DNA of 64,000 nt from Escherichia coli (GTDB lineage Bacteria; Pseudomonadota; Gammaproteobacteria; Enterobacterales; Enterobacteriaceae): the NCBI RefSeq assembly GCF_044324875.1, contig NZ_CP172185.1. One strand, written 5' to 3'. The stretch's first letter is position 1. Each line of letters opens with the position of its first letter. Positions 1,099-57,934 of the stretch are shown piece by piece. A model generated the notes under the pieces. It was not told where the DNA came from, searched no databases, and worked only from the letters and a program-made list of their open reading frames with translations. Position numbers and translations under genes: made by a program.

Positions 1099-3750
1099 AT
1101 GAACGAACAATATTCCGCATTGCGTAGTAATGTCAGTATGCTCGGCAAAGTGCTGGGAGAAACCATCAAGGATGCGTTGGGAGAACACATTCTTGAACGC
1201 GTAGAAACTATCCGTAAGTTGTCCAAATCTTCACGCGCTGGCAATGATGCTAACCGCCAGGAGTTGCTCACCACCTTACAAAATTTGTCGAACGACGAGC
1301 TGCTGCCCGTTGCGCGTGCGTTTAGTCAGTTTCTGAACCTGGCCAACACCGCCGAGCAATACCACAGCATTTCGCCGAAAGGCGAAGCTGCCAGCAACCC
1401 GGAAGTGATCGCCCGCACCCTGCGCAAACTGAAAAACCAGCCGGAACTGAGCGAAGACACCATCAAAAAAGCAGTGGAATCGCTGTCGCTGGAACTGGTC
1501 CTCACGGCTCACCCAACCGAAATTACCCGTCGTACACTGATCCACAAAATGGTGGAAGTGAACGCCTGTTTAAAACAGCTCGATAACAAAGATATCGCTG
1601 ACTACGAACACAACCAGCTGATGCGCCGCCTGCGCCAGTTGATCGCCCAGTCATGGCATACCGATGAAATCCGTAAGCTGCGTCCAAGCCCGGTAGATGA
1701 AGCCAAATGGGGCTTTGCCGTAGTAGAAAACAGCCTGTGGCAAGGCGTACCGAATTACCTGCGCGAACTGAACGAACAACTGGAAGAGAATCTCGGCTAC
1801 AAACTGCCCGTCGAATTTGTTCCGGTCCGTTTTACCTCGTGGATGGGCGGTGACCGCGACGGCAACCCGAACGTCACTGCCGATATCACCCGCCACGTCC
1901 TGCTGCTCAGTCGCTGGAAAGCCACCGATCTGTTCCTGAAAGATATTCAGGTGCTGGTTTCTGAACTGTCGATGGTTGAAGCAACCCCTGAACTGCTGGC
2001 GCTGGTCGGCGAAGAAGGTGCCGCAGAGCCGTATCGCTATCTGATGAAAAACCTGCGTTCTCGCCTGATGGCGACACAGGCATGGCTGGAAGCGCGCCTG
2101 AAAGGCGAAGAACTGCCAAAACCAGAAGGCCTGCTGACACAAAACGAAGAACTGTGGGAACCGCTCTACGCTTGCTACCAGTCCCTTCAGGCATGTGGCA
2201 TGGGTATTATCGCCAACGGCGATCTGCTCGACACCCTGCGCCGCGTGAAATGTTTCGGCGTACCGCTGGTCCGTATTGATATCCGTCAGGAGAGCACCCG
2301 CCATACCGAAGCATTGGGCGAGCTGACCCGCTACCTCGGTATCGGCGACTACGAAAGCTGGTCAGAGGCCGACAAACAGGCGTTCCTGATCCGCGAACTG
2401 AATTCCAAACGTCCGCTTCTGCCGCGCAACTGGCAACCAAGCGCCGAAACGCGCGAAGTGCTCGATACCTGCCAGGTGATTGCCGAAGCGCCGCAAGGCT
2501 CCATTGCCGCCTACGTGATCTCGATGGCGAAAACGCCGTCCGACGTGCTGGCTGTCCACCTGCTGCTGAAAGAAGCGGGTATCGGGTTTGCGATGCCGGT
2601 TGCTCCGCTGTTTGAAACTCTCGATGACCTGAACAACGCCAACGATGTCATGACCCAGCTGCTGAATATCGACTGGTATCGCGGCCTGATTCAGGGCAAA
2701 CAGATGGTGATGATTGGCTATTCCGACTCAGCAAAAGATGCGGGCGTGATGGCGGCTTCCTGGGCGCAATATCAGGCACAGGATGCATTAATCAAAACCT
2801 GCGAAAAAGCGGGTATTGAACTGACGTTGTTCCACGGTCGCGGCGGTTCCATTGGTCGTGGCGGCGCACCTGCTCATGCGGCGCTGCTGTCACAACCGCC
2901 AGGAAGCCTGAAAGGCGGCCTGCGCGTGACTGAACAGGGCGAGATGATCCGCTTTAAATATGGTCTGCCAGAAATCACCGTCAGCAGCCTGTCGCTGTAC
3001 ACTGGGGCGATTCTGGAAGCCAACCTGCTGCCACCGCCTGAGCCGAAAGAGAGCTGGCGTCGCATTATGGATGAACTGTCAGTCATCTCCTGCGATCTCT
3101 ACCGTGGCTACGTACGTGAAAACAAAGATTTTGTGCCTTACTTCCGCTCCGCTACGCCGGAACAAGAATTGGGTAAACTGCCGTTGGGTTCACGTCCGGC
3201 GAAACGTCGCCCGACCGGCGGCGTCGAGTCGCTGCGCGCCATTCCGTGGATTTTTGCATGGACGCAAAACCGCCTGATGCTCCCCGCCTGGCTGGGTGCA
3301 GGTACGGCGCTGCAAAAAGTGGTCGAAGATGGCAAACAGAGCGAGCTGGAGGCTATGTGCCGCGATTGGCCATTCTTCTCGACGCGTCTCGGCATGCTGG
3401 AGATGGTCTTCGCCAAAGCAGACCTGTGGCTGGCGGAATACTATGACCAACGCCTGGTAGACAAAGCACTGTGGCCGTTAGGTAAAGAGTTACGCAATCT
3501 GCAAGAAGAAGACATCAAAGTGGTGCTGGCGATTGCCAACGATTCCCATCTGATGGCCGATCTGCCGTGGATTGCAGAGTCTATTCAGCTACGGAATATT
3601 TACACCGACCCGCTGAACGTATTGCAGGCCGAGTTGCTGCACCGCTCCCGCCAGGCAGAAAAAGAAGGCCATGAGCCGGATCCTCGCGTCGAGCAGGCGT
3701 TAATGGTCACTATTGCCGGGATTGCGGCAGGTATGCGTAATACCGGCTAA
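1099..3750 (+). CDS. ppc: Phosphoenolpyruvate carboxylase
   Basis: 883-aa ORF, ATG at 1099; translation [41 protein letters not shown]... matches Ppc as I recall it, full length. Confidence 0.97.
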
Positions 3751-54708: not shown

Positions 54709-54769
54709 ACTCGGCGCAGAGCCGTCCCCTTCGGGGTGAAGGCAACAGGTCAGCACTGTGCGAACTGAT

Positions 54770-54897
54770 ACCCTCACCCCGGCCCTCTCCCTGAAAGGGC
54801 GAGGGGGAAAAACGTAGCCCTGTTCAGCAACGGAGCTGAGCACCGCTCCGGACAGTCCCCTCGCCCCTCTGGGGAGAGGGTTAGGGTGAGGGGAAAA
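54770..54897. repeat. GC-rich palindromic intergenic repeat, two copies
   Basis: 54770-54812 (ccctcaccccggccctctccctgaaagggcgagggggaaaaa) and 54853-54897 (cagtcccctcgcccctctggggagagggttagggtgaggggaaaaa, near-identical to 731-776). Confidence 0.75.
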
Positions 54898-54963
54898 ATT
54901 CAGCACAATGCAAACGGCACTGCTCTCACCGGAAACCATGCCAGATTTCGTATTAAGGCAGAC

Positions 54964-55786: not shown

Positions 55787-56770
55787 TTATTTCACCGTAC
55801 CTAAAATTTCGATTTTCGCTGCTCTGGCTTTGACTTTACGTGACCAGATAGAGGTAAGAATTGGCACCAGAATCGAAGTCACAATGACCGCCGTTGCTAC
55901 CAGCGAAGTTGCTGCCGGAGCCATTGGTTTAAACGCAGGCACCATTTCTGCAATCAGCACAGGTGTCGCTACCGCGGCCCCTGCGGAACTGGAAGCGGCA
56001 ATTCCGGCAGTGCCATCGCCACCGCCAATCAATTTATCGGCGATAATCAACGGAATACCGGTCACGATAATTACTGCCACACCCAACAGGATCCCCAGCA
56101 AACCTGTCTGGGCAATTACAGTCAAATCAATGGTATTACCCAGTGCGAAGGCAAAGAATGGAATCAGCGTCTGCACCGCTTTGCTGAAAAATTCTCGTAA
56201 TTCAGGGTCAAGGTTCCCAAGGGCAAAGCCCACCAGGAATGGTAATACTGCGCCGACGAAAACATGCGGTTCAAACGAGGCAATCCCGGCAGTGCCCAGA
56301 ATAATCATCGTCATGAGCGGCCCGGACTCCAATGACATCAACACAAATGCCCCAGCTTCTTCTTTTGTGCCGTACTGCTGCATGATGGAAGCGTAAAGTC
56401 CGCCGTTGGTCATATCCATCGCCGCCACCAGCGCCAGCGTTGAAAGTCCGGCAAAGAATCCAACTTCAACACCATGTTCCGGAATAATGCGCGAGGCAAT
56501 TGCCGCAACCACCCACGCGACGGCAATTTTTGTTACCACCAGCGTACCGGATTTACGCAATACCGTTCCCGTCGCGCTTAATTTTATTGACGCCCCCATG
56601 CAAAAAAACCACACCGCCAGAATGGGCACCGTACCGGTAATCATCCCGTTGGTGAATGATCCAAAATATTTCCCCGCCTCCGGCGAGAAGGTGTGGCACA
56701 GTGCACCAAGGAATAACGGGACGAGCATCATCCCCCCCGGGATTTTCTCAATCGAGCGTTTTATCTGCAT
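55787..56770 (-). CDS. kdgT: 2-keto-3-deoxygluconate permease
   Basis: Internal ATG at 56770 gives 327 aa [37 protein letters not shown]...; polytopic membrane protein. Confidence 0.92.
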
Positions 56771-56889
56771 TTCCATCACCTGTCGGCATATTTTTAAGGG
56801 CTGATGCGTCATTCCTCAATGGAGCATCAGTGTTGATGGAAACGAAGATAGACATTCATTTAATCAATAAAAGTGATCAAAACCACATC

Positions 56890-56908
56890 AATTGAAACAC
56901 TGTTTTAT
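56890..56908. promoter_or_regulatory. Candidate KdgR operator upstream of kdgT
   Basis: attgaaacactgttttatt: palindromic GAAACA/TGTTTT core resembling the KdgR box (AATRAAAYRNYRTTTYATT), ~120 nt upstream of kdgT start. Confidence 0.45.
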
Positions 56909-56944
56909 TTTTATCGGATCATTGTTTTTATTTTGAAATTGATC

Positions 56945-56973
56945 ACAAAAAAACCACCGCCGTTGGCGATGGT
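56945..56973 (-). terminator. Intrinsic terminator after sodA
   Basis: Plus strand aaaaaaa + accaccgcc-gttg-gcgatggt (7/8 bp stem); on minus strand a hairpin followed by a U-run. Confidence 0.6.
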
Positions 56974-57029
56974 TCATTTTTTAAGCTGATATGCGGCGTA
57001 AACGCCTCATTGCAGCAGGCGGCAAATGA

Positions 57030-57650
57030 TTATTTTTTCGCCGCGAAACGTGCCGCTGCTTCGTCCCAGTTCACCACGTTCCAGAACTCTTTGATGTAGT
57101 CAGGACGGCGGTTCTGGAATTTCAGGTAGTAAGCATGTTCCCACACATCCAGGCCCAGAATCGGGAAGCCGGAAGCGCCAGAAATAGCTTCACCCATCAG
57201 CGGGGAATCCTGGTTAGCAGTAGAAACCACCGCCAGTTTATCGCCTTTCAGCACCAGCCATGCCCAGCCGGAACCAAAGCGGGAAGCTGCCGCTTTCTCA
57301 AATTCTGCTTTGAAGTTATCAACGGAGCCGAAGTCACGTTCGATAGCCGCTTTCAGGTCACCCTGCAGGGTGGTGCCTTTTTTCAGACCTTTCCAGAACA
57401 GGCTGTGGTTAGCGTGACCGCCAGCGTTGTTGCGCAGTACGGTTTTCTTGTCTGCTGGCAGCTGGTCCAGTTTGGTGATCAGCTCTTCAACCGGCAGGTT
57501 GGCAAATTCTGGCAGGCTTTCCAGCGCCGCGTTGGCGTTGTTGACGTAGGTCTGATGGTGTTTGGTGTGGTGGATTTCCATGGTCTGCTTATCGAAGTGC
57601 GGTTCCAGGGCATCGTAAGCATACGGCAGGGATGGCAGGGTATAACTCAT
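57030..57650 (-). CDS. sodA: Manganese superoxide dismutase
   Basis: ATG at 57650 gives 206 aa [40 protein letters not shown]... Confidence 0.97.
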
Positions 57651-57747: not shown

Positions 57748-57934
57748 CCGTACTTTTCGTAAGGGTATGGTTTTGCAGGAAAATGCCCGAGATGTGAAGC
57801 AAATCACCCACTTAATGCCGTGATTGCCAGTAAATCGACAACGGCGGCAACAGGCGAAAGGTTAATCGACAGCACGATTTTTACACTCATCTCGTCGGAG
57901 ATGTGACGCGACGAAAAATGATGAGGATAAGAAG

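Follow-up and report, generated by a model that had tools for sequence, protein, structure and literature searches.

A conserved KdgR-type operator in the kdgT control region of Escherichia coli

KdgR is an IclR-family repressor of the kdg regulon. Work of Nasser (1994) and of Rodionov (2000, 2004) is reported to have covered the KdgR operators of Dickeya pectinolysis and kdg genes and to have predicted a gamma-proteobacterial KdgR regulon. In the account that PMC5559549 gives of Reverchon 1991 and Nasser 1994, a KdgR dimer sitting on its box keeps the target gene off when no inducer is present, and 2-keto-3-deoxygluconate (KDG) binds KdgR and frees the operator; the same paper quotes AAATGAAACAnTGTTTCATTT as the consensus for KdgR of Dickeya dadantii (Erwinia chrysanthemi). 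In E. coli, kdgT codes for a 2-keto-3-deoxygluconate:H+ symporter of 327 aa. A Northern blot has shown its mRNA to rise in a kdgR deletion strain, the authors calling kdgT a known KdgR target (PMC6958661), and RNA-seq of a laboratory-evolved strain without kdgR has shown over-expression of kdgT, kdgK, kduD and kduI (PMC6892915). The first-pass annotation of the DNA studied here had counted kdgT among the members of the KdgR regulon, which agrees with this published derepression. Both studies used K-12; its box and the one described below are distinguished by a single base. A literature search of partial coverage found no E. coli KdgR footprint or gel shift on the kdgT box.

At deoP2, CytR acts by anti-activation from a position between two tandem CRP sites (-41.5 and -93.5). 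Antagonistic control by CRP and KdgR was demonstrated in vitro at the pel, ogl and kduI promoters of Dickeya (Nasser, Robert-Baudouy, Reverchon 1997, as presented in PMC8688573), and a gSELEX study names kdgT as a new target of cAMP-CRP (PMC3105977). PlaR (YiaJ) is likewise an IclR-family repressor, acting on plant-sugar genes, with the published box ATnTGAAACnnnGTTCAnTT and yiaK as its primary target (PMC6958661).

The window analysed in this work is a 64-kb stretch (64,000 nucleotides) of E. coli DNA. The K-12 gene order rhaT, sodA, kdgT, yiiM, cpxA is found there in inverted form, and the matching E. coli records annotate the genes flanking the region of interest as sodA and kdgT. sodA ends at 57030 and is followed by its intrinsic terminator (Table 1), therefore the kdgT control region extends from 56771 to about 56950, and the terminator is its upstream boundary. 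The first-pass annotation placed a KdgR-like palindrome in a very AT-rich segment upstream of kdgT and took it for a core feature rather than a part of either insertion. All of this holds. The 100 bp at 56850-56949 have a GC content of 0.24, where that of the flanking genes is about 0.52, and the centre of the box (56900) lies 130 bp 5' of the kdgT ATG on the minus strand. Of 5426 complete E. coli genomes, 5425 match a 401-bp query over the box region with 95-100% identity, so the kdgT-sodA intergenic region is a part of the core genome, and this status sets the box apart from the insertions that the first-pass annotation saw elsewhere in the window.

Table 1. Positions of the features of the kdgT locus. 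Window coordinates are used throughout except for the last two lines, which give coordinates within individual loci (L numbers) of the cross-species set. Sense sequences are those of the kdgT strand.
Feature	Position	Strand	Sequence or remark
kdgT CDS	55787..56770	minus	ORF, ATG 56770, stop 55787; annotated as kdgT in matching E. coli records
Putative leader hairpin	56801..56830	minus	CTGATGC...GCATCAG; CTGATGCGTCATT/AATGGAGCATCAG; 13-nt arms, 85% complementary
Predicted transcription start (C/A)	56837..56838	minus	conserved -10 and nearly invariant CA; 5' leader of ~67 nt
Predicted -10 hexamer of the kdgT promoter	56845..56850	minus	TATCTT; A2 and T6 invariant in 21 genera
Proximal CRP-like site	56872..56887	minus	sense TGTGGTTTTGATCACT; 8/10 CRP core matches
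KdgR box 1, main operator (very probable)	56891..56909	minus	ATTGAAACACTGTTTTATT; kdgT-sense AATAAAACAGTGTTTCAAT
Box 2, weaker degenerate tandem copy	56913..56931	minus	sense ATAAAAACAATGATCCGAT; upstream of box 1 by exactly 22 bp
Distal CRP-like site	56932..56947	minus	sense TGTGATCAATTTCAAA; 9/10 CRP core matches
sodA intrinsic terminator	56951..56975	minus	11-bp stem, then T-run; GGGGTTTTTTT conserved
Aldolase-like gene, locus L007	2540-3430	minus	box at 3447-3465
Boxes of the aldolase-like gene, loci L008-L012, L016, L021, L025, L037, L065, L081	~3433-3499		

Outside the kdgT control region, two spacers of the neighbourhood contain recognisable elements. The divergent rhaT-sodA spacer carries TGTGAAGCAAATCACC at 57793-57808, matching the CRP core at 9/10 positions, which fits the one shared CRP site reported for rhaT-sodA (PMC3105977). 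In the yiiM-cpxA spacer (54720-54960 of the window) there are repeats of a GC-rich palindromic unit, ccctcaccctaaccctctcccc...ggggtgaggg in type, and these look like a repetitive extragenic element.

The palindrome itself occurs once in the window. Its sequence had been reported correctly by the first-pass annotation, while the coordinates given for it (56890-56908) were one base off. The dyad symmetry GAAACA/TGTTTT noted there is real, too, yet imperfect, as only 5/6 positions pair: the arms AAACA/TGTTT show perfect 5-nt pairing around the central C at 56900, and 7/9 positions pair when the arms are taken as 9 nt. Agreement with the KdgR consensus AATRAAAYRNYRTTTYATT (IUPAC), quoted as the form of KdgR operators, extends over 18/19 positions with a single mismatch. 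Box 1 is the sole match to this consensus in the window with up to 3 mismatches, and 0.01 matches with no more than one mismatch are expected by chance in 64 kb.

The same motif is present upstream of kdgK (AATGGAACACTGTTTTAAT), kduI (twice, AATGAAACATTGTTTTATT and AACGAAACAGTGTTTCACT), tabA (AATGAAACGTTGTTTTAAT) and ygjV (TAAAAAACGGCGTTTCATA) in K-12. These five sites, without that of kdgT, served to construct a symmetrised position weight matrix (PWM). Box 1 scores 27.9 bits out of a maximum of 30.0, exceeding four of the five training sites, and the runner-up in the window reaches 11.8 bits; the PWM scan proposed in the first-pass annotation thus returned a high score, not a low one. With genome composition as background, the score corresponds to p = 1e-10 and about 1e-3 sites expected per genome. 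The segment has a GC content of just 24%, which favours matches to A/T-rich motifs, and short dyads are common in such DNA, so the palindrome might be thought a chance product of an AT-rich spacer with no regulatory role. However, even on a 26% GC background p is 4.9e-9, and 1.3e-6 sites are expected in the 260-bp intergenic region. The motif is also common to other kdg genes and recurs in most of the species considered below, mostly at a similar distance from the ATG. We regard a chance origin as practically negligible.

Since the training sites had been chosen with the same consensus as box 1, a consensus-free test was run, which mitigates this circularity. The 17-mers of the kdgT intergenic region were compared with the upstream regions of kdgK, kduI, tabA and ygjV. 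The best shared 17-mer, AATAAAACAGTGTTTCA, is box 1 itself. It matches at 58/68 positions; over 200 shuffles the mean was 46 and the highest value 52.

Comparison with the K-12 kdgT upstream region, also proposed in the first-pass annotation, has found the same box in a region 98% identical to that of the window. The K-12 box is AATAAAACAGCGTTTCAAT, and the sole difference within it is T/C at the degenerate central position (consensus Y, about 56900), compatible with the consensus. In the window allele AAACAgTGTTT the 5-bp core of the dyad is perfect. This allele scores 27.9 bits, against 26.6 bits for the K-12 allele AAACAgCGTTT. Exact 45-mers with the window allele were found in 2085 and those with the K-12 allele in 2051 of the 5426 complete E. 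coli genomes.

Conservation of the box was followed beyond E. coli with a scan for the KdgT protein, taking one genome per species. This provided 80 loci besides the window, including those of Escherichia, Citrobacter, Kosakonia, Pantoea, Rahnella, Dickeya, Serratia and Hafnia, and the best PWM match was taken from the 400 bp upstream of each kdgT. A box of at least 12.8 bits was found in 76/80 loci (top score 29.6); the four loci in which no such box was found belong to Limnobaculum, one Pantoea, Budvicia and one Selenomonadales MAG. The 73 loci with boxes of at least 15 bits were analysed further, and the box centre is located 96-148 bp from the kdgT ATG in 68 of these 73 species. The PWM score, the K-12 comparison, the consensus-free 17-mer and the cross-species footprint all favour the operator proposed in the first-pass annotation, and we consider it very probable that this palindrome is the kdgT operator for KdgR.

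Box 1 is palindromic and follows the sodA terminator at a distance of just about 40 bp, so its dyad could also be seen as an RNA or DNA hairpin, serving sodA termination or leader structure, instead of a protein-binding site. The sodA terminator is, however, a separate GC-rich hairpin with its own T-run, whereas the arms of box 1 are A/T-rich and show pairing at just 7/9 positions. Orthologues keep the sequence and not the pairing: substitutions in the orthologous boxes stay within the R/Y consensus and are uncompensated across the dyad (the arms of AATGAAATAATGTTTTGTT mismatch without compensation), which argues for a protein site. Moreover, box 1 lies upstream of the predicted transcription start. 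Rfam matches were sub-threshold only (STnc150 with 19.5 bits against a gathering threshold of 60, rnk_leader with 23.2 against 50) and were treated as chance. A hairpin is therefore a highly improbable explanation of the dyad.

The question of which IclR-family repressor occupies box 1 is less one-sided. The PlaR box and the kdgT box are a near-identical palindrome TGAAAC-nnn-GTT(T)CA, and the PlaR-box core TGAAAC-nnn-GTTT is present in box 1. kdgT was found among the PlaR targets by gSELEX, and the authors of that study suggest that PlaR and KdgR co-regulate it and describe cross-regulation between plaR and kdgR (PMC6958661). Box 1 could accordingly be primarily or equally a PlaR operator, with both repressors co-regulating kdgT through one site. 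Expression data point the other way: kdgT mRNA is raised in the kdgR mutant, but the genes reported as raised in the plaR mutant do not include kdgT (PMC6958661). Loss of kdgR alone suffices for kdgT derepression in the strain of PMC6892915, and across genera the box has been retained along with the kdg regulon. A primary or equal role of PlaR thus seems rather unlikely to us, but PlaR may share box 1, so that part of its occupancy would not be due to KdgR.

With KdgR as the main repressor, the expected course of regulation is simple. In the absence of inducer a KdgR dimer on box 1 would keep kdgT silent. A build-up of KDG, arising from hexuronate or pectin-fragment catabolism or from uptake, would lead to its binding to KdgR and to release of the operator. 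Box 1 accounts for the silence of the KDG transporter until KDG appears and ties kdgT to kdgK, kduID and eda. As such, it is already known, ordinary core regulation that is shared across Enterobacterales; what is mildly new is the conserved four-site layout around it, with a tandem degenerate box.

Conserved blocks of the control region were obtained from an alignment of 21 Enterobacteriaceae and from an ungapped, box-anchored profile of 74 species. Box 2 is the second-best PWM match in the whole window (11.8 bits). It has kept one half-site, AAAACA, while the other half reads TGATCC, and together with box 1 it forms a 22-nt direct repeat of 73% identity. Taken alone, it is not significant (0.05 sites expected in the intergenic region). 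The best secondary PWM match is located 21-22 bp upstream of box 1 in 62/73 species.

Two CRP-like sites flank the pair of boxes. In the proximal one, GATCACTTTT is invariant among the 21 Enterobacteriaceae and the left half is poorly conserved; in most species the offset between the box centre and the site is fixed, at +18.5 to +20.5. In the distal one, TGTGA-N6-TCA is conserved in several genera. Matches to the CRP core (TGTGA-N6-TCACA) occur window-wide at chance level, with 24 found and 26 expected; two of them fall within 170 bp in the kdgT control region, where most species hold them at a constant distance from the box, and GATCAC is invariant there at a fixed offset.

The two sites are also related to each other: GTGATCAA of the distal and TTGATCAC of the proximal site form a perfect 8-nt inverted repeat (56939-56946 and 56873-56880, respectively). 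This repeat brackets both KdgR boxes, with 58 nt between the arms, and consists of the best-conserved halves of the two CRP-like sites. GATC is present in each of these halves and in box 2 (TGATCC), so that about 70 bp hold three conserved Dam sites.

A promoter serving kdgT can be proposed from the same conserved blocks. In the 74-species profile a TAnnnT signal is seen 48-53 bp downstream of the box centre, corresponding in the window to the putative -10 hexamer TATCTT. A consensus scan of 56600-57200 has found no sigma-70 -35/-10 pair and no usable -35 for TATCTT, as expected for an activator-dependent promoter. A start at 56838 would put the site centres at -41.5 (proximal CRP-like site), about -62 (box 1), -84 (box 2) and about -101.5 (distal CRP-like site); the predicted start corresponds to about 4101622/3 in K-12 (NC_000913.3). 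On this geometry the kdgT promoter would probably be a class II CRP-dependent one, with the CRP-like site at -41.5. A literature search for a description of the kdgT promoter (kdgTp) returned nothing relevant.

In such an arrangement box 1 would directly abut the proximal CRP-like site, covering neither the -10 element nor the start. From a place beside the core promoter and not on top of it, KdgR would probably block CRP-dependent activation. Bound between or next to the CRP sites, where CRP and the C-terminal domain of the RNA polymerase alpha subunit (alpha-CTD) would dock, it would repress mainly by anti-activation, and box 2, two helical turns away, possibly assists in this. We know of no protein contact between KdgR and CRP. 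This promoter geometry and the anti-activation mechanism are read from conservation only, and we would give them an even chance of being correct.

KdgR could instead repress by steric occlusion of RNA polymerase, in which case the real kdgT promoter would overlap the box and the -41.5 geometry would be wrong. Many repressor operators do overlap core promoters, A/T hexamers abound in this region, and the kdgT transcription start has no entry in either the Kim 2012 TSS tables or the SMRT-Cappable-seq tables. An overlapping promoter would nonetheless have to do without the -35/-10 pair missing from the consensus scan, and among the -10-like elements A2 and T6 are invariant across genera in TATCTT alone, 50 bp downstream of the box centre. 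Occlusion is therefore unlikely in our opinion. Other -10 hexamers around the box were rejected on manual inspection, as they had either no T6 or no acceptable -35 at 16-18 bp.

Carrying anti-activation further, we speculate that the kdgT control region is a fixed four-site module conserved across Enterobacterales, in which two KdgR dimers (or KdgR and PlaR), lying between a pair of CRP dimers, would share one face of the DNA and repress in a CytR-like manner, by anti-activation and not by occlusion of the promoter. The order of sites in it may be distal CRP, box 2 with its conserved TGATCC half, box 1 and proximal CRP at -41.5. We hold this only tentatively and think it somewhat improbable as a whole. 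If true, the module would represent a new mechanistic class for an IclR-family repressor, even though the operator itself is known. The kdgT layout, with boxes 22 bp apart and CRP-like flanks, constitutes a compact test case for the integration of IclR-type repressors with CRP, which is an incremental question.

A two-tier hairpin is predicted a few nt into the putative leader. Hairpins of like shape are predicted at this position in 6 genera (including Citrobacter, Kosakonia, Yokenella and Superficieibacter) despite differing sequences, with z-scores from -0.65 to -2.4. RNAalifold found no consensus structure in the MAFFT alignment of the leaders because the alignment columns are out of structural register. 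Separately, the pair TTCCATCA/TGATGGAA provides perfect 8-nt complementarity between the predicted 5' end (56834-56841) and the Shine-Dalgarno region directly in front of the ATG (56771-56778). Kosakonia has a different complementary pair, TCTTCA/TGAAGA. Helices of at least 6 bp between the 5' end and the Shine-Dalgarno region were found in 14 of 68 species against 5-7 expected, a weak enrichment.

In Escherichia other than E. coli, Citrobacter, Yokenella, Kosakonia and their relatives, a gene coding for a 296-aa aldolase-like protein of the DapA/NanA superfamily is located between kdgT and yiiM. The protein scores under every NCBIfam equivalog cut-off. The gene has its own KdgR-like box directly upstream (e.g., AATGAAATAGCGTTTCAAA), scoring 16-22 bits. 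Neither the gene nor its box is present in the window or in K-12, therefore E. coli appears to have lost a kdgT-linked member of the KdgR regulon.

Compared with the KdgR operators of Dickeya, the kdgT box is the same imperfect palindrome: the 21-mer AAATAAAACAGTGTTTCAATT of the window agrees with AAATGAAACAnTGTTTCATTT at 18/20 specified positions, and nothing essential differs, the E. coli box having A for G at one half-site position and A for T near one end. The two systems also share a KDG transporter as a target and the expected release of an IclR-family repressor by KDG. As at Dickeya pel, ogl and kduI, a KDG-responsive KdgR and a cAMP-CRP activator would act through adjacent sites at one promoter; for Dickeya this was demonstrated in vitro, whereas for E. 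coli kdgT the involvement of CRP comes from gSELEX and that of KdgR from expression in mutants. The proposed kdgT layout resembles CytR/CRP at deoP2 in that the repressor site lies between two CRP sites, the proximal one at -41.5. Unlike CytR, KdgR belongs to the IclR and not to the LacI family, and the distal site of kdgT would be at about -101.5 with respect to the predicted start.
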